A stretch of DNA of 64,000 nucleotides from Peptoniphilaceae bacterium (GCA_052090825.1 JBQDBK010000011.1:2103-66102); one strand, 5' to 3'. Positions 7,132 to 52,107 are shown, counted from the stretch's first letter. Numbers and translations: made by a program. Notes: a model not told the origin generated them from the letters alone.

Positions 7132-8931
7132 ATGAAAATAATAAATAGCATTTTAAATACTTTAAATAAGACTAAATCGTCTTTTCAGAGATTTCCTTTA
7201 GCAATGCTTAGTATATTTATATCTTTTATATTTTTCATGATTGGAGAAAATAAAAAACAATCTATATTTTTAAGTAATGTTTACAAAGGAAATGAACAAT
7301 TATATATAAAGTATGGATATTTATTTTTTATCCTTACAATTATTTTAGTGCTGATATCTTTATTAAATGAATTATTAAAAAACTCTGCTAGAGATGAGGA
7401 AGAATTAAAAAAATTTAAACTAATTAGTAGAGGGGCATATATCTTAACTATACCTTTAATTTATGCTCTGTATAATAATGTTATTTTTAAGGAAACTGGA
7501 CTTTTTTTATATGAAGATATGTATAAATATTTTGGACTTCTTGCTTTTTTTTCTTTAGTTGTAACTTATATAGCAAAAATAAATTATCATAAGGATTATG
7601 TTTTTTATTTTATAAAAATTTTAAAAGCAGGAATGATATCATTAGGATATTCTTTTATAATGTTAGTAGGACTTTTTTCAATTTATTATGCAGTTCAAGA
7701 ACTATTTGGAGAAAAAATAAATCCCTTAGTTTATACAAATACTGCATTAGCTATATTCTTGCCTTTTAATTTTGGAGTGTTTTTCTCAAATTTTCCAAAG
7801 ATCAGAGATTCTTTAGTGAATTATAAAATATCAAAAGTAATAAAAGTATTAATAAACTATATAATAATACCAATATTTACAATATATGCTATAATTTTAT
7901 ACTTATATTTTGCTAAAATTATACTGATAAAGAGTATACCTGAAGGAATTATAAGTAATTTAGTGCTTTGGTTTTGTTTATTAAGTATTTTTTTGTTATT
8001 TATAACTACAGTTATAAAGGATATAGAAATATCTAAGATTTTTAATAAAATTTTTCCTATAATTTTATTACCATTGTTAATAATGCTTTTTTATGCAATA
8101 GGAATAAGGATCTATGAGTATGGTTTTACAGAAAGTAGGTACTATGTTTTAATGGGTGGAATATTTTCATTTATTTCGATGTTGTACTATATATTTTATA
8201 AAGATAGTTCTAATATAACCATAATTATACTATTTTCTATAATTATTTTAATATCATCAGTAGGACCTTTAAATGCCTACAATATTTCTGCAACAAGTCA
8301 AAATAAAAAATTTGAAAGTATTTTACTAAAAAACAAAATGATTAAAGATAATAAAATAATTCCTAAATCAGATATAGATAAAAATGATAAAAAAGCAATA
8401 GAGAGCATAGTAAATTATATGACAGTAAAACATAGACCCTGGGAGCTTAAATATATACCTAAAGATTATGAAAATAATGAAGAAAATTTTGAGAAACTTT
8501 TGGGATTTAAATATACCAAGGATGATAGTGAATTAGACTCAGTCCACTTTAATTATGACAGGTCTTATTCAATAACTATAGCTGGTTATACAAATATGGT
8601 TGCCATGAACCTGTCTTCTAATAATGATATAATTGCAGAATCTGGAAATTATACTGCCAATATTGAAGATGGTGTAGTTAATATTGATTATAAAAGTAAG
8701 GATGAATTTACTTTAGTAAAATTTTCAATAAAAGAAGTTTTTGATAAATATAAGGCAATAAAAAATTCTAATCAAAGTGTTACTTTAGATTATATTGCTA
8801 TAAAAGGGTCAGAAAATGGTATAAATTATAAAATTATTTTTACTAGTTTAGAGTCTTATCAAAATAGTTTAAGTCCAGAAAAATGTGACTATGATTTTTC
8901 TTTTTATATATTAACTGATTCAGAACAATAA
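7132..8931 (+). CDS. Large polytopic membrane protein with a C-terminal soluble domain (DUF4153-like by general appearance)
   Basis: 599 aa, with many hydrophobic segments over about the first 385 aa and then a hydrophilic tail. RBS GAGGAG lies upstream. The family name is recalled from memory, not verified. Confidence 0.5.
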   Translation: MKIINSILNTLNKTKSSFQRFPLAMLSIFISFIFFMIGENKKQSIFLSNVYKGNEQLYIKYGYLFFILTIILVLISLLNELLKNSARDEEELKKFKLISRGAYILTIPLIYALYNNVIFKETGLFLYEDMYKYFGLLAFFSLVVTYIAKINYHKDYVFYFIKILKAGMISLGYSFIMLVGLFSIYYAVQELFGEKINPLVYTNTALAIFLPFNFGVFFSNFPKIRDSLVNYKISKVIKVLINYIIIPIFTIYAIILYLYFAKIILIKSIPEGIISNLVLWFCLLSIFLLFITTVIKDIEISKIFNKIFPIILLPLLIMLFYAIGIRIYEYGFTESRYYVLMGGIFSFISMLYYIFYKDSSNITIIILFSIIILISSVGPLNAYNISATSQNKKFESILLKNKMIKDNKIIPKSDIDKNDKKAIESIVNYMTVKHRPWELKYIPKDYENNEENFEKLLGFKYTKDDSELDSVHFNYDRSYSITIAGYTNMVAMNLSSNNDIIAESGNYTANIEDGVVNIDYKSKDEFTLVKFSIKEVFDKYKAIKNSNQSVTLDYIAIKGSENGINYKIIFTSLESYQNSLSPEKCDYDFSFYILTDSEQ

Positions 8932-8933
8932 AA

Positions 8934-8963
8934 GTAGAGAAGATTAATACTTCTCTTTTTTTT
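8934..8963 (+). terminator. Intrinsic terminator after the membrane protein gene
   Basis: AGAGAAG ... CTTCTCT stem followed by a T8 run. Confidence 0.7.
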
Positions 8964-8979
8964 ATGTTAAAATATATTT

Positions 8980-9672
8980 ATGATTAAAAAAGATAATGTT
9001 CCTGGTAAAAAATATAAAATATATCAAGAAGATTCTAATTTTAAATATACTACTGATTCCTTAATACTATCATCTTTTGCTAAAGTTAAAGGATTGTGCG
9101 TGGACTTAGGATGTGGAACGGGTATTTTGTCCTTAAGGCTTATAGATAAAGTGAAAAAATTTATAAATATAGACATAAATGAGGAGGTTATAAAATTACT
9201 TAATATGTCAGTAGCCTTAAATGAATTAGAAGATAAAATTGATAATTATAATATTGACCTAAAAGAGATTTCAAAAATCTTAACTAGGCAAAGCATAGAT
9301 ACGGTTATAACAAATCCACCTTACTATAATAATGGTCATAGAGTGAAAAATAATATGATAGACAAGGCTAGATATAGTGATTTTATAGAAGACTTTATAT
9401 ATGCTGCTAACTATATATTAAAAAATGGAGGTAAATTTTATTGTATAGTTCCAGCAACAAGAATGTTGGATATATCTATAATTCTTATAAATTCACATAT
9501 TGAGCCTAAAAAATTTCAATTTATTAAGAAAGATATATCTTCACAGGCTAAGCTAGTATTAGTTGAAGGAGTAAAAGGCGCTAAGAAGAATTATACTATA
9601 CTTCCTGATTTTATTTTATATAAAAATGGTCAAATAAGTGAGGAATTAAATAAAATATATAAGGAGGTATAA
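8980..9672 (+). CDS. SAM-dependent N6-adenine methyltransferase, tRNA1(Val) m6A37 TrmN6/YfiC/YabB-like
   Basis: SAM motif DLGCGTGIL and catalytic TNPPYY motif. Sits directly upstream of rsmI, as in the Bacillus yabB-...-yabC locus. Confidence 0.75.
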   Translation: MIKKDNVPGKKYKIYQEDSNFKYTTDSLILSSFAKVKGLCVDLGCGTGILSLRLIDKVKKFINIDINEEVIKLLNMSVALNELEDKIDNYNIDLKEISKILTRQSIDTVITNPPYYNNGHRVKNNMIDKARYSDFIEDFIYAANYILKNGGKFYCIVPATRMLDISIILINSHIEPKKFQFIKKDISSQAKLVLVEGVKGAKKNYTILPDFILYKNGQISEELNKIYKEV

Positions 9673-10488
9673 ATGATTTATTTTTGTCCAACACCAATTG
9701 GTAATTTAAAAGATATAAGCTTAAGAACATTAGATATATTGAAAAAAGTTGATATAATAGCTGCCGAAGATACAAGAGTGAGTTTGAAGTTATTAAGCAC
9801 TTATAATATAAAAAAAAGACTTATTAGTTATCATAAATTTAATGAAAAATCTCAATCTGAAGAAATTATAAAGTTATCAAAAGAAAATAATATAGCAATA
9901 ATAAGCGATGCAGGGCTACCTGGTATAAGTGATCCAGGGGAAATATTAGCTAAAAGATTGATTGAAGAAAACATAGATTTTCAAGTTATACCTGGAGCAA
10001 ATGCTGCTCTTACAGCTTTAGTTTTATCTGGAATAAGTAGCCAACATTTTTTATTTTATGGCTTTTTAACTTCTAAATCTTCACATAGGAAAAAAGAGCT
10101 TAAAGAATTAGAAAATAATCCATATACTTTAATTTTTTATGAATCTCCACATAGGTTGATGTCTATGTTAGAAGATCTTTACGAAATATTTGGCGATAGA
10201 AAAATTTCTATATCTAGAGAATTAACTAAGATGTATGAAGAAACTTATAGAGGAGACCTATCTGAAATCTTAAATAATAAAGAATATGTAAAGTTAAAAG
10301 GTGAATTTGTAGTTGTTGTAGAGGGTAAAGCTAGAGTTAAAGAAGAGAACATAGATGTAAGAAAGCTATTAAAAGAAAAAATAGAATCTGGTATAAAGAA
10401 ATCCCAAGCAGTCAAAGAAATTTCCAAAGAATATAATATTTCGAAAAATGACCTATATAAAGTAAGCTTGGAGGTAGACAATGAATGA
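9673..10488 (+). CDS. rsmI: 16S rRNA (cytidine1402-2'-O)-methyltransferase RsmI
   Basis: The N-terminus PTPIGNLKDISLRTLDILKKVDIIAAEDTR is typical of RsmI tetrapyrrole-methylase-fold enzymes. Starts 1 nt after the preceding stop. Confidence 0.9.
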   Translation: MIYFCPTPIGNLKDISLRTLDILKKVDIIAAEDTRVSLKLLSTYNIKKRLISYHKFNEKSQSEEIIKLSKENNIAIISDAGLPGISDPGEILAKRLIEENIDFQVIPGANAALTALVLSGISSQHFLFYGFLTSKSSHRKKELKELENNPYTLIFYESPHRLMSMLEDLYEIFGDRKISISRELTKMYEETYRGDLSEILNNKEYVKLKGEFVVVVEGKARVKEENIDVRKLLKEKIESGIKKSQAVKEISKEYNISKNDLYKVSLEVDNE

Positions 10489-11440
10489 CTTCAATGAAAT
10501 GAAAGAGGATATAAAAGAATTAAATTATCTTTTAAAAAATAAATATAATAAATTCTTTTCCATGCCTAGAGAAAGTTTTAGGGTTGAAGTTTTAAATGAA
10601 ATAGGAAAATTTTCAAGTTTAGAAAAGCTTTCTAATAAAAAGTTAAAAGAATTTGGTTTGGTAGTAGGTGTGGATGGGTCAGTGAATAAGGTAGGAGGAA
10701 GCTATCCTCACTATATTGAATTATATCAAGCTCTGGCTAAACCAACTATAGGAGAAGATTTGTTTTCTAATAGTTATTATAGTCCTATGCTAAGTGGTAA
10801 TACATCAGAAGATGAAAAACTTGAAATCAATAAGAGAGAAAAATTATTAGCTAGTATAGAGTTAGATGTAGCTATTAAGTCTGTAAAGTATCATAAACCA
10901 TCTATACTTATGATGGATGGAGGATTAATAAGATATAAAATTCATGATCAATATAATTATGAAGAATTAATAAGTTTATGTGAAAAAAATTCAGTTGTTA
11001 TAGTAGGAGTAATAAAAGATTTAAAGACGAATGTAATATCAAGAACCTTAAATGAAGACTTATCTTTATACGATAGAGAATTACTTTATGGAAAACTTAA
11101 CAAGGGTGATTTTATTGAAATAAAAGATGAATATAATAAGAAGTCTGAAGAAAAGGATAGTGATGAAGGATTAGTATCTGCTTTTTTAAATACATCCAGC
11201 TCAGCTATGGCAATAGGCCTAGATTTAATAAAATCGCAGAGAGAATATATTAAAGATGTTGCAAATCTAGTTTATACTTTAACTCCAAATAATTCTAGAG
11301 GAGTACCCTTATGGTTAGATATAGTAGATAATGAAGTTAAGATAACAGATCTTATGATTGAATCTATGTTAGAGGAGTACTTAGATAGAGATATATATGA
11401 AAGGTTTTTTGTTTCTGAAAGAGATAGGAGAGGAATATGA
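10481..11440 (+). CDS. NurA-like nuclease (RNase-H-fold DNA end-processing nuclease family)
   Basis: 319 aa with the ordered acidic motifs VGVDGS, SIELD and MMDGGL, which resemble the catalytic D..E..D arrangement of NurA. The ATG overlaps the rsmI stop (ATGAATGA) and GGAGG lies 6 nt upstream. Partnered with a HerA-type ATPase gene. Confidence 0.6.
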   Translation: MNDFNEMKEDIKELNYLLKNKYNKFFSMPRESFRVEVLNEIGKFSSLEKLSNKKLKEFGLVVGVDGSVNKVGGSYPHYIELYQALAKPTIGEDLFSNSYYSPMLSGNTSEDEKLEINKREKLLASIELDVAIKSVKYHKPSILMMDGGLIRYKIHDQYNYEELISLCEKNSVVIVGVIKDLKTNVISRTLNEDLSLYDRELLYGKLNKGDFIEIKDEYNKKSEEKDSDEGLVSAFLNTSSSAMAIGLDLIKSQREYIKDVANLVYTLTPNNSRGVPLWLDIVDNEVKITDLMIESMLEEYLDRDIYERFFVSERDRRGI

Positions 11441-13284
11441 AAGTAGTTGGAATAACAACAGCTCAAGAAGTTTTTATAGGTTCTAGAGATAGAAATTTTA
11501 GAATGAATGAGTTTTTAATAATAGAAGATTCAGTTCAAGGAGATCTTGTAGGTGAGATTGTAGATGCTAAAACTTTTAATAGATATATCCCCTTAAATAT
11601 AGGCGGAGATTTCATAGATGCTTCTGTTATAGAATCTCTTAGGGCTATGGGGTATGACGTCAATGAAGAGACTATATATATAGGAAAACTAAGATTATTA
11701 AGAGAGGCACAATATCCCGTGCTAACAGGAAGCAGCATTAGAATACCAGAATTTAATGAAGTAAAAAAAATAATTGCCCCAACTCATCCAAAGGAAGGTC
11801 TTGTTTTAGGTATAATAAGAAACTCTGATTCTTTAACTAAAAAGATGGATGATTCATATAAAAATTTACTAGATATATATGAGGATGGAAACTATTTAAA
11901 CCAGCATGAAGTACCCTATGTTCTAGACTATAAATCTATGCATGAATATCCTCATATTGGAGTATTTGGAGGTTCTGGATCGGGTAAAAGTTTTGGGCTA
12001 AGGGTTATGCTTGAAGAGTTAATGAATAAAGATATTCCTACTGTAGTTTTAGACCCTCATTATGAGATGTCTTTTTCAGACAAGTCTGAGTCAAATTATT
12101 CACGAGATTATAAGGGGAAATTTTATAATCTTCAAATAGGAATAGATGTAGGGATAAGATTTGAAGATTTAAGTGTGACAGATATTAAGAATTTATTGAA
12201 TACCTCATCTCATTTAACTGAGTCTATGAGTAATAGTGTTGATTTACTTTTTAGTAGGGGAGCTAATTATCATAGTTTTTCCAATAAGTTAAGATATTTA
12301 GTTGAAGCTCAAGAGTTGGGTAGTTTAGATAAAATAGATGAGAAGATAAATTATGCTGATACGCCTCAAGAAAGAGAAGAGTGGGAAAAAAGAAAAAAAA
12401 TATACATGAAATATGATAAATTTTGTCCTAATCAATCTGTAAGAGGTATCATGTGGAGATTAAATAGGCTTTATAATGAAGGGATATTTAATAATGATAT
12501 TTCTAAAATAGTAGATGGAATAAAAGCTGGAAAATTAGTAGTAATACAAGGTTCTACCAGAATAATACAAGTATTTTCAACTTATTTATTAAATAAATTA
12601 TATTATGAGAGAAGAGAATATAGAGAAGCTAAGTATAGGAATGAAATTAAAGAATTTTTCCCGCCTTTTATAATAGTAACGGATGAAGCGCATAATTTTG
12701 CTCCTAAAGGTTATGATACTCCTTCAAAATCAATTTTAAAGGAAATTTCGCAAGAGGGTAGGAAGTATGGTGTATTTTTAGTATTAGCAACTCAAAGGCC
12801 TACTCTTTTAGATGAGACAATAACAGCCCAATTAAATACAAAATTCATTTTTAGGACTGTTAGAGCTTCTGATATAGATACAATAAAAGAAGAAACTGAT
12901 ATATCCTCAGAAGAATCAAGAAGACTACCTTACTTAATGACAGGAGATGTTTTTATATCTTCTGCAAAATTAGGTAGAACTTCTTACGTAAGGATAAGAT
13001 CAGCTCATACAACATCACCTCATAAAGAAAATCCTTTTGATGAATTATTGGGCATAAAATCCAAAGAAAATAAAGATTTTTTAAATTATATAGAAGATTT
13101 TATGCCTATTTCAGTAGCTACAGATTGTCTATCTATCATACAAGAAATAAATAATAGATATTCTATCAATTATACGATGGAACAATTTAAATTAAAGTTA
13201 GAAGAACTCGAGAAAAGTGGGCTTATAGAAGTTGAAGATACTTTTATAGGAAAGCAGTATATTTTTAAAAATAAGGAAATCTAA
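11437..13284 (+). CDS. HerA-type (FtsK/HerA superfamily, DUF87) hexameric ATPase/translocase
   Basis: N-terminal barrel-like region, Walker A GGSGSGKSF, Walker B IIVTDEAHNF, then ATQRPT...FIFR. ATGA overlap with the nurA-like stop. About 90 extra C-terminal residues follow the ATPase core. Confidence 0.8.
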   Translation: MKVVGITTAQEVFIGSRDRNFRMNEFLIIEDSVQGDLVGEIVDAKTFNRYIPLNIGGDFIDASVIESLRAMGYDVNEETIYIGKLRLLREAQYPVLTGSSIRIPEFNEVKKIIAPTHPKEGLVLGIIRNSDSLTKKMDDSYKNLLDIYEDGNYLNQHEVPYVLDYKSMHEYPHIGVFGGSGSGKSFGLRVMLEELMNKDIPTVVLDPHYEMSFSDKSESNYSRDYKGKFYNLQIGIDVGIRFEDLSVTDIKNLLNTSSHLTESMSNSVDLLFSRGANYHSFSNKLRYLVEAQELGSLDKIDEKINYADTPQEREEWEKRKKIYMKYDKFCPNQSVRGIMWRLNRLYNEGIFNNDISKIVDGIKAGKLVVIQGSTRIIQVFSTYLLNKLYYERREYREAKYRNEIKEFFPPFIIVTDEAHNFAPKGYDTPSKSILKEISQEGRKYGVFLVLATQRPTLLDETITAQLNTKFIFRTVRASDIDTIKEETDISSEESRRLPYLMTGDVFISSAKLGRTSYVRIRSAHTTSPHKENPFDELLGIKSKENKDFLNYIEDFMPISVATDCLSIIQEINNRYSINYTMEQFKLKLEELEKSGLIEVEDTFIGKQYIFKNKEI

Positions 13285-13286
13285 TA

Positions 13287-13979
13287 ATGAATACTCATGC
13301 CTATATTTACAGAGAATTAAGTAATAATATAGATAATAAATATAGAGAATTTAACTCTAAATTAATTCCTAATATAGATAAAAAGAAAATATTAGGAGTA
13401 AGAACCCCAATATTGAGAAAGATAAGTAATGAAATTCTAAATAAGTTTGATTATGGAGATTATTTAAAAGAGCTTCCTCATAAGTATTACGAAGAAAATA
13501 ATATACATGGATTTATAATAGCAGGGCAAAAAGATTTTGAAAAAACTATTTATTTATTAGATAATTTTTTACCTTTTATTGACAATTGGGCTACTTGTGA
13601 TAGTATATCTCTTAAAATATTTAAAAAATATCCTAAAGAAACTTATTCTAAGATAATGAAATGGCTAGATTCTGATAGAACTTATACTAAAAGATTTGCT
13701 ATAGTTTCCTTGCTAAAGTTTTACTTAGATGAAAATTTCACAAGAGAATCTTTAAATAAAGTTGTATCTATAAAAAGTAAAGATTATTACGTTAATATGG
13801 CTATAGCTTGGTATCTAAGTTATGCTTTAATTAAACAATATAATTTAACCATAAAGATTATTGAATCAAAAAAATTAGGTGAGTTTGTTCAAAATAAGAC
13901 GATAGAAAAAGCTATAGAAAGTAGAAGAGTAGAATGGGAGGTAAAAAATTATCTGAAAAAATTTAAAATAAGAGGATAG
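13287..13979 (+). CDS. DNA alkylation repair protein (AlkD/AlkC-like HEAT-repeat family)
   Basis: 230 aa with LGVRTPILRKIS and the DNWATCD motif typical of the DNA_alkylation family. Starts 2 nt after the herA-like stop. Confidence 0.7.
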   Translation: MNTHAYIYRELSNNIDNKYREFNSKLIPNIDKKKILGVRTPILRKISNEILNKFDYGDYLKELPHKYYEENNIHGFIIAGQKDFEKTIYLLDNFLPFIDNWATCDSISLKIFKKYPKETYSKIMKWLDSDRTYTKRFAIVSLLKFYLDENFTRESLNKVVSIKSKDYYVNMAIAWYLSYALIKQYNLTIKIIESKKLGEFVQNKTIEKAIESRRVEWEVKNYLKKFKIRG

Positions 13980-14063
13980 ATTAAAATTAAAAGTGGACAA
14001 ATTCAGAGTGTGCTTTTATAATTTATAGTAAAAAATCTTAGTAAGTGGAAGGAGAAAAATGAA

Positions 14064-15569
14064 ATGGAATTTGGGATATGGACGATAGTTCCTCCTTTAG
14101 TGGCTATAATATTAGCCCTGATAACAAAGGAAGTAATTACCTCTTTATTATTGGGGATTTTAGCTGGAGGATTAATTTTTACAGGAGGAAATGTAATTCT
14201 AGCTTTTGAAGAAGTTTTTAGCTTAATGGGAAATAAAGTTGGAGATAATTCTTTGATGATAATATTTTTATCATTGTTAGGTTCCTTAGTTATGGTGATG
14301 AATATGGCTGGAGGATCTTTCGCCTATGGAAAGTGGGCAGGAAAAAGAATTAATAACAAAAAATCTGCAAAGTTGGCTACTGCAGTCTTAGGCATGCTTA
14401 TATTTATAGATGATTATTTTAACTGTTTAACAGTTGGAGCTGTAATGAAACCCATAACAGATCAAAATAAGATATCTAGGGCAAAGTTAGCCCATATTAT
14501 CGATTCTACTGCGGCTCCGATATGTATACTGGCTCCAGTTTCTAGTTGGGCAGCATCTGTAGTTGGGATTATAGGGGACGCTGGAATAAAAAATCCTATG
14601 AATGTATTTTTAAATACCATACCTTTAAATACTTATGCAATACTTACAATTTTAATGGTAATTTATTTTTCTTTTTCTAAAAGTGAAATAGGAATGATGG
14701 AAAAATTAGAGAGAAATGATACATCAAAAATATCTTCTAATGAAGAAACAGGGTATACACATTCAGAAAACGGCAAAGTAATAGACTTAGTTTTACCAAT
14801 AATAATTTTAATAAGTGTAACAGTTTTAATGATGCTTAGAAGTGGGAATTATTTTGGACATAATGGCGTTTCAGCAGGTCAAGCTTTTGGTAATGCTGAT
14901 GTTAGTTTATCCCTAGTATTAGGTTCAGTAACAGCAATTTTTCTAGCTTTTATAATGTATGTGCCTAGGAAATTATTAACTTTCAAACAATTTATAAATG
15001 GATTAGTAGAGGGAATGAAATCTATGTTATCAGCCATAGTAATTCTTACTCTTGCTTGGACAATTGGAGGAATAACAAGCGAAGCTTATTTAAATACAGG
15101 CGGGTTTATAGGTGGTCTCATAAAGAATTCTACTATGCCAATGTGGGGTTTACCAACAATAGTATTTGTAATAAGTGGATTTCTTGCCTTTGCAACAGGA
15201 ACTGCTTGGGGCACTTTTGGACTTTTAATACCTATACTTATACCTATATTATCTCATACTGGTAATATGGAATTTATTAATATAATATTAGCAGCAGTTT
15301 TTTCAGGTTCAGTATTTGGGGACCACTGCTCTCCTATATCGGATACAACCATACTATCTTCGGCAGGTGCGGGCTGCGATCATATAGCTCACGTCTCAAG
15401 TCAATTGCCATATGCCATTATATGTGGAACAGCTTCTGTAGTTGGATTTTTAGTAGCTGGTATTACAGAAAAAGAAATTTTAACCTTACCATCTGCCTTA
15501 TTAGCTTTAATAATTTTTATTATATTTTCTAAGAAACATACCATAAGAAAGTATGCAAATATAAATTAA
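14064..15569 (+). CDS. Na+/H+ antiporter NhaC-family membrane transporter
   Basis: 501-aa polytopic protein. The N-terminus IWTIVPPLVAIILALITKEV and overall layout resemble the NhaC family. RBS GGAAGGAG lies upstream. Confidence 0.65.
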   Translation: MEFGIWTIVPPLVAIILALITKEVITSLLLGILAGGLIFTGGNVILAFEEVFSLMGNKVGDNSLMIIFLSLLGSLVMVMNMAGGSFAYGKWAGKRINNKKSAKLATAVLGMLIFIDDYFNCLTVGAVMKPITDQNKISRAKLAHIIDSTAAPICILAPVSSWAASVVGIIGDAGIKNPMNVFLNTIPLNTYAILTILMVIYFSFSKSEIGMMEKLERNDTSKISSNEETGYTHSENGKVIDLVLPIIILISVTVLMMLRSGNYFGHNGVSAGQAFGNADVSLSLVLGSVTAIFLAFIMYVPRKLLTFKQFINGLVEGMKSMLSAIVILTLAWTIGGITSEAYLNTGGFIGGLIKNSTMPMWGLPTIVFVISGFLAFATGTAWGTFGLLIPILIPILSHTGNMEFINIILAAVFSGSVFGDHCSPISDTTILSSAGAGCDHIAHVSSQLPYAIICGTASVVGFLVAGITEKEILTLPSALLALIIFIIFSKKHTIRKYANIN

Positions 15570-15581
15570 AGAAAATAAATA

Positions 15582-15626
15582 AAAAGAGATGATTCTAAAA
15601 TGTTTTAGAGGTCATCTCTTTTTATT
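15582..15626. terminator. Bidirectional terminator between the convergent nhaC-like and DUF853 genes
   Basis: Long hairpin AAAAGAGATGATTCTAAAA / TTTTAGAGGTCATCTCTTTT (two G-U pairs), flanked by A- and T-runs. Confidence 0.75.
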
Positions 15627-15651
15627 TGTGTTTAAAAGTAAATATATATTT

Positions 15652-17085
15652 TTATTTTCTTTTTTTTATGGAACCGATAATTCCCCTAGCTATCTCTCTT
15701 CCTATTTGACGGCTTATAGTATAGGCAAAAGAATTAAATATGGAAGAAATAAAGTCTTTATTATCTTTAGAAGTACTATTAGCTTTTTTTTCATCAACTA
15801 TATCTATTTTTTTGAACTTTCTTTGTAAGATTTCATAGGCTGATTCTCTATCTATAATTTTTTTGTATTTATTATTTAGTTTTGATAAATTAATAATATC
15901 ATTATAATCAGTTTGAGTTAAAGTTTCAAAAGATGAATGAGGAGGGAATATTAAAGCTTTTTTAGAAAAGGTTGGAGAGCCATCTACATCTATAGTGCTT
16001 ATAATAGCTTCTCCAGTTCTTAAAGTAGATAAATCATTTTCAAGATTAAGATTTTCATCCTGTCTTAAAGTTTTTGAAATGTCCCTTATATTTTTCATTT
16101 CTTTTGGAGAAAAAGCTCTTAACTGATGAATTATTTTATTTCCTAGTTGAGATGATATAGAATCTGGGATATCCATAGGATTTTGGGTTACAAAATATAT
16201 TCCAATACCCTTAGAGCGTATTAATCTAACAACTTGATTAATTTTTTCTAAAATAATTTCACTAGAATTATTAAATAATAAATGAGCTTCATCAAAGAAA
16301 AATACTAATTTAGGAAGATTCTGATCACCCACTTCTGGAAGCTCTTCGAATAACTCAGAAAGAAGCCATAATAAAAACATAGAATAAACTGTAGGATTAT
16401 TAATCAATTTTTCACTAGATAAAATATTTATATATCCTCTACCTAAATCATCTTTTCTAAATAAGTCTCTAATATCTAAGGATGGTTCATTAAAAAATAG
16501 ATCAGCACCTAAATCTTCTAAATATAAAAGTTTTCTTCTAATTGCATTTATAGATTGATTAGATATATTCCCGAATTCAGATGAGAATTCTTGTCTTTTT
16601 TCTGACATCAACTTAAGAATAGAAGTTAGATCCTTTAAGTCTAAGAGTAGAAGTCCCATTGAGTCAGCTATTCTAAAAGCAATATTTAATATTCCAGCTT
16701 GGGTATCATTTAATCCTAAAATTTGGGATAAAATAATTGGGCCCATTTCACTTACATTAATTCTGAGCGGAAGTCCTTTTTCTCCAAAAGTATCCCACAA
16801 TTCAACAGGGTAGGCATAATAGTTGAAATTATATATATTTAGTTCCTCTAACCTAGCAATAATTTTATCATTAGGACTTCCAGCTTTACATAGATTGGCA
16901 AGATCCCCTTTAACATCAGATAAAATCACTGGAATTCCAAGTTCTGAAAAAGACTCGGCTAAAACTTTTAAGGTTACTGTTTTTCCAGAGCCTGTAGCAC
17001 CACATATTAGACCATGTTGATTGATTTTATTAGATAATATATTAATATTTTCATTGTCACTTGTTTTTGCAAAAGTTATATTCAA
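15652..17085 (-). CDS. DUF853 / YjgR-like P-loop NTPase (HerA-like helicase domain)
   Basis: Walker A GATGSGKT, Walker B FFFDEAHLLF, basic C-terminal tail. TTG start at 17085-17083 is supported by AGGAGGT 5 nt upstream. Confidence 0.75.
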   Translation of the reverse strand: MNITFAKTSDNENINILSNKINQHGLICGATGSGKTVTLKVLAESFSELGIPVILSDVKGDLANLCKAGSPNDKIIARLEELNIYNFNYYAYPVELWDTFGEKGLPLRINVSEMGPIILSQILGLNDTQAGILNIAFRIADSMGLLLLDLKDLTSILKLMSEKRQEFSSEFGNISNQSINAIRRKLLYLEDLGADLFFNEPSLDIRDLFRKDDLGRGYINILSSEKLINNPTVYSMFLLWLLSELFEELPEVGDQNLPKLVFFFDEAHLLFNNSSEIILEKINQVVRLIRSKGIGIYFVTQNPMDIPDSISSQLGNKIIHQLRAFSPKEMKNIRDISKTLRQDENLNLENDLSTLRTGEAIISTIDVDGSPTFSKKALIFPPHSSFETLTQTDYNDIINLSKLNNKYKKIIDRESAYEILQRKFKKIDIVDEKKANSTSKDNKDFISSIFNSFAYTISRQIGREIARGIIGSIKKRK

Positions 17086-51558: not shown

Positions 51559-52107
51559 ATGTCAAAAGAAAAGGTGAAAGTTTCTATAGATGATATGAAT
51601 TTTTATGTTGTTGGTGGAGATGATCCAAATTATGTAAAAGGACTCGCTAAGGATTTAGATGTAAGAATAAAAGAAATCCAAGTAGCCAACTACAGATTAA
51701 ATCAAGTACAATCTTTAATTTTAACAGCTTTAAATATATTAGATGAAAAAGAAAAGCTAAAAAAAGAAGAAACTATTATTGAAAATTCGAAAAATGATGA
51801 AAATGTAATAAGAAATAATATTAAAGAAATAGAAAATCTTAGAAAAATTGTTGACTCCTTTGATGAAGAAAGAAAAGAATATAAAGATAATATAATTCAA
51901 CTAAAAAATAAATTATCAGAAGTTGAGGATTTAAATAAAGATTTAAAAACGAAAAATGAAAATTATCTTTTAGAAATAGATGAACTTAAGGAAAAAACTT
52001 ATAGTTTAAAAAACGAAAAAGAAATTTTAGAAGAACAAATTTATGATTCTCAAAAAAGAATAATAGATTTAAATAGAGAGATTGAGAGTATTAATGAAAG
52101 TAAATAA
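51559..52107 (+). CDS. zapA: Cell division protein ZapA with a long C-terminal coiled coil
   Basis: N-terminal ZapA-like domain (VKVSIDDMNFYVVGGDDPNYVKGLAKDLD) followed by a heptad-rich tail. Conserved position after pheT in Firmicutes. Confidence 0.75.
   Translation: MSKEKVKVSIDDMNFYVVGGDDPNYVKGLAKDLDVRIKEIQVANYRLNQVQSLILTALNILDEKEKLKKEETIIENSKNDENVIRNNIKEIENLRKIVDSFDEERKEYKDNIIQLKNKLSEVEDLNKDLKTKNENYLLEIDELKEKTYSLKNEKEILEEQIYDSQKRIIDLNREIESINESK

Follow-up and report, generated by a model that had tools for sequence, protein, structure and literature searches.

A NurA-HerA gene pair conserved beside rsmI in Tissierellia and its probable incorporation into a compact housekeeping operon of Peptoniphilaceae

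Introduction

The HerA-NurA complex of archaea (Sulfolobus, Pyrococcus, Thermococcus) resects DNA ends, and is usually encoded together with mre11 and rad50. Here we report on a bacterial nurA-herA pair found in a stretch of 64,000 nucleotides (nt) from a Peptoniphilaceae bacterium (GCA_052090825.1, JBQDBK010000011.1:2103-66102), referred to below as the window, whose positions are counted from its first letter. The pair lies in a block of five genes, which code for a YabB-like methyltransferase (MT), the rRNA methyltransferase RsmI, NurA, HerA and an AlkD-like protein. Our analysis indicates that this block is probably a compact housekeeping operon, derived by compaction from an old Bacillota gene neighbourhood.

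Other described systems also bear on this locus. The yab region lies near the replication origin in Bacillus, and the family of AlkD DNA glycosylases also holds non-catalytic members, namely AlkD2, AlkF and AlkG. As for NurA-HerA itself, a structural study of the Deinococcus complex from 2023 placed the bacterial form in few bacteria, such as Deinococcus-Thermus, and described its role as controversial (PMC9960219). A literature search returned no paper naming NurA together with rsmI, and the sole paper with both NurA and abrB concerns archaeal regulation, which is not relevant here; as far as we have searched, the Bacillota NurA-HerA family is annotated in databases and not discussed in the literature. 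An earlier sequence-only reading of the window had assigned the five genes, and had regarded the embedding of a nuclease/translocase machine and an alkylpurine repair protein in a ribosome/tRNA-modification operon as an unusual arrangement, which might point to constitutive expression tied to growth.

Results

Synteny of nurA and herA within the Tissierellia

A scan of one genome per species with the HerA alignment yielded 80 loci, nearly all from Tissierellia (the class that comprises Peptoniphilus and its family, the Peptoniphilaceae) or from unclassified Bacillota metagenome-assembled genomes (MAGs). The window proteins were compared by BLASTP with all open reading frames (ORFs) of these 80 loci, and 68 loci were evaluable for the rsmI-nurA junction. 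In every one of these 68 Tissierellia species representatives, rsmI is found on the same strand and less than 1 kb upstream of nurA. The sequence-only reading had considered that close relatives might run from rsmI directly to an nhaC-like gene, which would indicate a recent insertion; no such relative was found, nurA-herA following rsmI in 68/68 species.

The interval between rsmI and nurA comes in two forms. A minus-strand ORF of 79-85 amino acids (aa) occupies it in 35 of the 68 loci, and no such ORF is present in the other 33. The product of this ORF is AbrB-like (MKSTGIVRKVDELGRVVIPIELRR..., PF04014 at E ~1e-11 to 1e-13), with an AbrB N-terminal domain followed by a C-terminal double CxxC zinc-ribbon-like tail, and its gene is divergent from nurA (Table 1). 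The loci devoid of this spacer gene include every Peptoniphilaceae locus, and also Tissierella. The embedding that had been called unusual is an old synteny, in which nurA-herA stands as a separate unit behind abrB in 35/68 Tissierellia.

In all Peptoniphilaceae loci rsmI and nurA overlap by 8 to 17 nt, as they do in the window, and nurA and herA overlap by 4 nt, except in P. catoniae, where they are separated by a 1-nt gap. The MT-rsmI-nurA-herA block is constant in this family despite varying flanks, with truA-DUF4153 or a 4HBT thioesterase gene upstream, and nhaC, DUF4825 or alkD downstream. One locus with typical Tissierellia gene order and 60% HerA identity is filed under an actinobacterial name, 'Varibaculum timonense' (L071); this assembly is probably mislabelled.

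In all fetched loci holding both genes, nurA adjoins herA, except where a small gene has been inserted between them. Such insertions recur in the short nurA-herA spacer: GIY-YIG nuclease genes in an uncultured Tissierella MAG (L082 2431-2715) and in Gudongella sp. SC589 (L084 7530-7799), a 23S-rRNA-IVS four-helix-bundle gene in an uncultured Gudongella MAG (L079 7566-7940), and an RRXRR/HNH (IscB-like) gene in Halobacteroides halobius (L086 8657-9916). Selfish nuclease genes thus seem to insert preferentially at this site, as in a hot spot.

Relatives outside the Tissierellia

Our first two homologue searches returned Tissierellia only, while a profile made from distant NurA representatives reached other Bacillota lineages. 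The Halanaerobiales Halobacteroides halobius and Acetohalobium arabaticum display the order tmk-DUF327-holB-PSP1(yaaT)-yabA-MT-GIY-YIG-rsmI-abrB(-)-nurA-herA-metS-tatD, which we take to be that of the B. subtilis yab region (yabA-yabB-yazA-yabC / abrB / metS-yabD) with nurA-herA added. A Symbiobacteriaceae MAG and two further contigs likewise have a yab-type order with nurA-herA between abrB and metS. The sequence-only reading was right in placing a GIY-YIG gene in the Bacillus-type yabB-yazA-yabC locus: in the Halanaerobiales this gene is present between MT and rsmI. NurA/HerA does not stand in for the GIY-YIG nuclease; since both are present in the Halanaerobiales, NurA/HerA did not replace the GIY-YIG gene.

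In a Mahellales MAG, abrB(-)/nurA-herA is kept, with genes other than rsmI upstream, which indicates that the tightest pairing is that of abrB with nurA-herA. This divergent pairing, found even in a locus devoid of rsmI, suggests that the AbrB-like protein may regulate nurA-herA.

A third type of neighbourhood was found in Candidatus Syntrophocurvum (L087 7001-13281) and in a metagenomic contig (L090 7001-13148), where Mre11-like (Metallophos) and Rad50-like (AAA_15/AAA_23) genes come after nurA-herA, with neither rsmI nor abrB there. This linkage is of the archaeal type, and as gene context it provides the best support for a predicted role in DNA end processing. After the Rad50-like gene both loci carry two conserved small ORFs of ~88 and ~216 aa that have no Pfam match.

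Identity of NurA and HerA

The NurA assignment is supported by the PF09376 profile (73.9 bits against a cut-off of 21, E 1.9e-20), which matches residues 60-288 at profile positions 2-254 of 254. Structure prediction with AlphaFold from 52 homologues gave a model with a predicted local distance difference test (pLDDT) score of 94 and a predicted template modelling (pTM) score of 0.91. The four top matches of this model in a Foldseek search of the PDB are NurA chains (9x1n_G, 9x1m_G, 3taz_B and 9x1l_G; probability 1.0, TMq 0.56-0.63); the best of the predicted fold matches are to the NurA proteins of T. kodakarensis and P. furiosus, with TMq ~0.62. After the NurA chains, the nearest folds are PIWI/Argonaute and EndoV. 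Six acidic residues, D65 (in a GVDGS motif), E127, D146, D198, D280 and D283, are invariant in the 52 homologues and are candidates for the acidic catalytic residues. PDB sequence and profile searches with the window NurA found no NurA, and the fold search alone did so. In one Tissierellia MAG (L022), NurA is split into two ORFs (1650-2225 and 2268-2624), which may reflect a frameshift, a pseudogene or an assembly error.

HerA matches PF01935 with 68.8 bits (cut-off 23.2), and contains a Walker A motif (GSGSGKS) and a Walker B motif (VTDEAH) that are invariant in the homologue alignment. Its matches in the PDB include HerA entries 9x1l, 8xau and 4d2i at E ~1e-14 to 1e-15, the best being 3e-15. 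The protein scores far below the cut-offs of the archaeal NCBIfam equivalogs NF040819 (91.7 bits against 970) and NF040937 (72.3 against 800), which points to a distinct bacterial HerA subfamily.

Inheritance and composition

The nearest NurA is that of P. catoniae (67% identity), and the nearest HerA that of P. mikwangii (76%), which identifies the source of the window as a Peptoniphilus-like bacterium. Over 72 loci, identity to the window proteins is correlated between NurA and RsmI (r = 0.90) and between HerA and RsmI (r = 0.79), and this joint divergence fits joint vertical inheritance of the three genes. In GC content, GC content at third codon positions (GC3) and codon usage, neither nurA and herA nor the alkD-like gene can be distinguished from the other 41 ORFs of the window. 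A search of viral contigs found no HerA relative.

The possibility that nurA-herA-alkD is a recently acquired island between rsmI and nhaC is extremely improbable as a whole and refuted for nurA-herA by the 68/68 linkage, the native composition and the RsmI-tracking divergence. The observations in its favour concern the alkD-like gene alone: among related genomes only three, those of P. catoniae, P. mikwangii and the window, have it after herA, and in close relatives herA runs straight to nhaC.

Layout and transcription signals of the block

The ORF table confirms five ORFs on the plus strand, and the four junctions were read from the sequence (Table 1). Shine-Dalgarno-like purine runs are located within the preceding genes ahead of the four downstream starts (AAGGAGG, GGAGG, AGGAGAGG and AAGGAAA, in order). 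According to the same table, roughly half of the same-strand neighbour ORF pairs in the window overlap or are at most 8 nt apart. Because tight packing is ordinary across this genome, the overlaps of the block are a sign of an operon without being unusual. A hairpin scan detected no terminator-like hairpin on the plus strand inside the block. In these respects the sequence-only reading stands: its five gene assignments hold on profile, structure and position evidence (the MT as YabB/TrmN6-like by position), its stop/start contacts are real, it rightly saw no terminators inside the block, and the comparison of composition and codon usage that it proposed for nurA, herA and alkD gives a match with the flanks.

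Table 1. Genes, junctions and transcription signals of the five-gene block and its surroundings. Positions refer to the window, except for the abrB-like genes, which are given by locus.
Feature	Position	Strand	Remarks
DUF4153 membrane protein gene	7132-8931		599 aa; directly upstream of block
Weak hairpin and T-run	8936-8956	+	directly 3' of upstream DUF4153 gene
Extended -10 element TGtTAAAAT	8965-8973	+	ends 6 nt before MT ATG; no Shine-Dalgarno
Class I S-adenosylmethionine (SAM) methyltransferase (MT) gene	8980-9672	+	NPPY motif; PF05175 MTS, 5.7e-13
MT/rsmI junction	0 nt		TAA, then rsmI ATG directly
rsmI, 16S rRNA C1402 2'-O-methyltransferase	9673-10488	+	TIGR00096, PF00590
rsmI/nurA junction	8-nt overlap		ATGAATGA
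nurA, RNase H-like nuclease	10481-11440	+	PF09376; ATG overlaps rsmI stop by 8 nt
nurA/herA junction	4-nt overlap		ATGA
herA, predicted FtsK/HerA-type hexameric translocase ATPase	11437-13284	+	PF01935; start overlaps nurA stop
herA/alkD-like junction	2-nt gap
Predicted AlkD-type HEAT-like DNA glycosylase gene	13287-13979	+	PF08713, 4.9e-19; 230 aa
Sigma-70-like site TGGACA-17-TATAAT	13994-14022	+	11/12 matches; ahead of nhaC-type gene
NhaC-type Na+/H+ antiporter family gene	14064-15569	+	PF03553
Bidirectional terminator hairpin	15575-15629	.	between nhaC-type gene and convergent HerA_C-type gene
Second FtsK/HerA-superfamily ATPase gene, HerA_C type	15652-17085	-	PF05872, E = 6e-180; 477 aa
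abrB-like gene divergent from nurA	L024 6610-6855; L062 6569-6808; L086 6460-6717; L172 3505-3750	-	all four on minus strand

Upstream of the block, the hairpin at 8936-8956 has a 7-bp stem with three G-C pairs and a T8 tail, with a folding free energy (dG) of -10.4 kcal/mol and z = -2.8; it is likely to terminate the upstream unit and to mark where the operon begins on its 5' side. The extended -10 element that follows recurs as TGnTAnAAT exactly 6 nt 5' of the MT ATG in four Peptoniphilus loci, at ~6500-6518 in L001, at ~5543-5561 in L006 and likewise upstream of the MT gene in L008 and L009, with no Shine-Dalgarno sequence in these loci. The MT gene of Anaerosphaera (L004) differs, with a 15-nt leader containing GAGGA. 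The operon mRNA is predicted to be leaderless, probably starting at A8980, and the shared extended -10 element, with no Shine-Dalgarno sequence in the window and the four Peptoniphilus loci, suggests that a leaderless mRNA is conserved.

Downstream, no terminator was detected between the alkD-like gene and the sigma-70-like site at 13994-14022, the intergenic fold being no better than that of shuffled sequences (z = -1.1), and the nhaC-type gene may be reached by read-through transcription from the block. Transcription leaving the block meets its first convincing stop at the strong hairpin at 15575-15629 (dG -26.3 kcal/mol, z = -8.5); none of 200 shuffled sequences folds as well as this hairpin. 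An Rfam search of the whole window found one tRNA only, and no leader or riboswitch near the block.

The AlkD-like gene

The AlkD-like protein matches PF08713 over residues 9-193 (69.3 bits, cut-off 21). In an alignment with B. cereus AlkD, the WW-D-S-V-D and IGW positions are matched by W101, D105 and W175 of the window protein, which presumably correspond to the catalytic residues Trp109/Asp113/Trp187, and the Trp/Asp/Trp positions are invariant among the three herA-linked copies. Besides the window, P. mikwangii and P. catoniae have the gene after herA, which makes 2 of the 77 species whose sequence extends far enough downstream; in other Peptoniphilus species herA is followed directly by nhaC, with no alkD-like gene between. 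Among 80 metagenomic AlkD-like relatives (43-57% identity, on contigs of 22-54% GC), none is near nurA, herA or rsmI. As to the question whether nurA-herA-alkD is a conserved extension, nurA-herA is conserved after rsmI, and the alkD-like gene is a recent add-on. From its distribution, this gene is a lineage-specific insertion and not part of a conserved NurA-HerA-AlkD module.

The methyltransferase genes

RsmI scores above the equivalog cut-off of TIGR00096 (275 bits against 167.9, positions 1-267 of 271). The MT remains below that of its best NCBIfam match, the TrmN equivalog NF047853 (55.2 bits against 350), and it is designated YabB/TrmN6-like on account of its position upstream of rsmI. 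An MT gene occupies this position in 48 of the 68 Tissierellia loci, and also in the Halanaerobiales; in at least some of the remaining 20 Tissierellia loci it is truly absent. Eight loci (L020, L024, L035, L036, L040, L044, L049 and L054) have no MT gene, with ~300-600 bp between yaaT/PSP1 and rsmI. The MT gene, missing from a subset of Tissierellia, is therefore a dispensable member of the neighbourhood.

Neighbouring genes

The DUF4153 gene has a GC content of 0.221, the second-lowest of the 46 tabulated ORFs (the lowest being 0.219, for ORF 51559-52107), and is found upstream of the block in several Peptoniphilaceae, with 41-48% identity. The nhaC-type gene directly follows herA in P. asaccharolyticus, P. 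indolicus and others. The second ATPase gene, of the HerA_C type, is convergent to the block, two genes downstream of it, and has no NurA partner; it also comes right after the alkD-like gene in P. mikwangii (L006 10623-12152, minus strand). The window contains no abrB, GIY-YIG, metS, holB or yaaT gene, and a tblastn search with the L087 proteins as query found no mre11 or rad50 within the 64 kb.

Discussion

The comparison of these loci suggests a reconstruction of how the block was formed. The ancestral order would have been holB-yaaT-yabA-yabB-(GIY-YIG)-rsmI / abrB(-) / nurA-herA / metS-tatD, in which nurA-herA formed its own unit, divergent from the small abrB-like regulator gene lying between rsmI and nurA. 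This separate-unit layout persists in Halanaerobiales, in Symbiobacteriaceae and in about half of the Tissierellia. The Peptoniphilaceae have neither abrB nor the GIY-YIG gene, and both would have been lost there. With the loss of the abrB spacer, nurA would have been left devoid of an upstream region of its own, its start overlapping the rsmI stop, and as a consequence of this overlap nurA-herA would be transcribed and translated with both methyltransferase genes. The fused four-gene block would have stayed together while both flanks rearranged, and a glycosylase gene of the AlkD type would have entered between herA and nhaC in a small subclade of Peptoniphilus. At the protein level, the NurA nuclease is expected to dock on the HerA hexameric translocase and to process DNA ends, while the AlkD-like protein may remove bulky or cationic alkylpurines. 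We infer that NurA-HerA functions in DNA end resection, and that the fusion came about through the loss of abrB. Its association with the RNA methyltransferases is best explained by an inherited neighbourhood and operon fusion, and not by a shared pathway.

Several points weigh against this reconstruction. It is from the sequence that we infer that the genes are co-transcribed, that the mRNA starts without a leader and that internal promoters are absent. The promoter scan returned 65 promoter-like sites where 74 are expected from shuffled sequence; with hits below shuffles in this AT-rich DNA the scan is uninformative and an internal promoter is possible, a candidate being present at 9731-9758. 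That abrB was probably lost rather than gained is concluded from outgroup comparison, not from a dated tree. The proximity of rsmI and nurA in 68/68 species, together with the 35/33 split of the spacer, could reflect selection for co-expression, which our reconstruction does not require. The NurA family is too divergent for sequence matching to the solved NurA proteins. Finally, even for Deinococcus, what bacterial NurA-HerA does in vivo has been described as controversial (PMC9960219).

The closest competitor is a functional link, in which NurA-HerA works with the RNA methyltransferases or their products, for instance in rRNA, tRNA or ribosome quality control, or has its dosage tied to ribosome biogenesis, so that selection keeps these genes together and repeatedly fuses them. 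The constancy of rsmI upstream of nurA in all 68 Tissierellia species and in three other Bacillota lineages is what such a link would predict. The absence of the abrB spacer from 33/68 species, in Tissierella as well as in Peptoniphilaceae, and a four-gene block that is intact in Peptoniphilaceae while both flanks differ, point the same way, as does the fact that the next-nearest folds to NurA, PIWI/Argonaute and EndoV, act on RNA or on RNA-guided substrates. However, in every outgroup examined, and in roughly half of the species, an opposite-strand gene splits the two units, which argues that co-transcription is not ancestral. Moreover, the Mahellales MAG maintains abrB/nurA-herA without rsmI, the Syntrophocurvum-type loci associate nurA-herA with Mre11/Rad50-like genes, again without rsmI, the MT gene is missing in 20/68 species, and the yab region as a whole consists of unrelated housekeeping genes that share one long stretch of conserved synteny. 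We therefore consider a functional link unlikely. A broader version, in which the Bacillota possess an undescribed, vertically inherited core NurA-HerA machine beside the transition-state regulator gene abrB in the yab region, and the rsmI linkage, up to the spacer loss and the translationally coupled fusion, is a real tie to ribosome/RNA biogenesis or to AbrB growth-phase control, seems to us similarly doubtful.

A role of nurA-herA in anti-phage defence, as a HerA-plus-effector pair comparable to Sir2-HerA or DUF4297-HerA and placed beside rsmI by chance, is very improbable. HerA does match several PADLOC HerA models and solved defence HerA structures (E 1e-10 to 1e-21), and a nuclease partner would be a plausible effector, but these matches concern mainly the C-terminal ATPase core (~residues 380-530), and NurA has no meaningful PADLOC match. 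Throughout a whole class the pair occupies one fixed core-genome position, with native composition and inheritance together with rsmI; no relative was found in viral contigs, and some relatives are linked to Mre11/Rad50-like genes.

Compaction of the old neighbourhood is the reading that we favour. A distinct NurA-HerA family is a fixed core-genome feature across a class of Bacillota, as against its supposed rarity outside Deinococcus-Thermus, and the pair is also present in Halanaerobiales, Symbiobacteriaceae, Mahellales and Syntrophomonadaceae-like genomes. These Bacillota carriers offer new, experimentally tractable organisms in which the role of bacterial NurA-HerA can be addressed. The divergent pairing with an abrB-like gene leads to the hypothesis of a growth-phase control of the end-processing machine. 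The locus also provides a clean example of an operon of 'mixed' function that probably arose by deletion of a spacer gene, and cautions against inferring function from translational coupling alone.

Comparison with known systems

The window pair resembles archaeal HerA-NurA in its adjoining nurA and herA genes, in the PF09376 match and fold of NurA, and in the PF01935 core and Walker motifs of HerA; moreover, some relatives of the window NurA (L087 and L090 only) adjoin Mre11/Rad50-like genes. It differs in having no mre11 or rad50 beside it and in lying in a bacterial housekeeping region, in its short NurA (319 aa, against ~395-450 aa in the matched structures), and in its HerA, which reaches 92 bits where the NCBIfam equivalog cut-off is 970.

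As to the B. subtilis yab region, the outgroup loci share with it the order and strands of MT, rsmI, the abrB-like gene and metS, and the window keeps the MT-rsmI pair. Unlike that region, the lineages examined carry nurA-herA between abrB and metS, where we know of nothing in Bacillus, and the window has no yazA, abrB, metS, holB or yaaT nearby.

The AlkD-like protein is like B. cereus AlkD (PDB 3BVS, 3JX7 and 5CL4) in its PF08713 domain, its size (230 aa) and its conserved Trp/Asp/Trp residues. However, the similarity is weak (E ~5e-4 over residues 88-196), and glycosylase activity of the window protein is a prediction.

With Sir2-HerA and DUF4297-HerA the locus has in common a HerA-type ATPase accompanied by an enzymatic partner, and a partial HMM similarity in the ATPase core. 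Unlike in these systems, the partner is NurA, and the locus is fixed in the core genome (68/68), vertically inherited and native in composition, and the search of viral contigs found no relative.

The NurA-HerA systems of D. radiodurans and T. thermophilus (PMC9960219, PMC5448004) are similar in being a bacterial two-gene nurA-herA unit with a presumed NurA-on-HerA-hexamer mechanism. The pair described here, in contrast, belongs to a Bacillota lineage and to another sequence family, since D. radiodurans HerA (7f6d) is matched at E = 1e-3 and its NurA not at all, and it lies at a fixed abrB/rsmI position that is conserved class-wide. As every part comes from a known family, the block is not a new kind of system, and is better described as a known machine in a new genomic arrangement.

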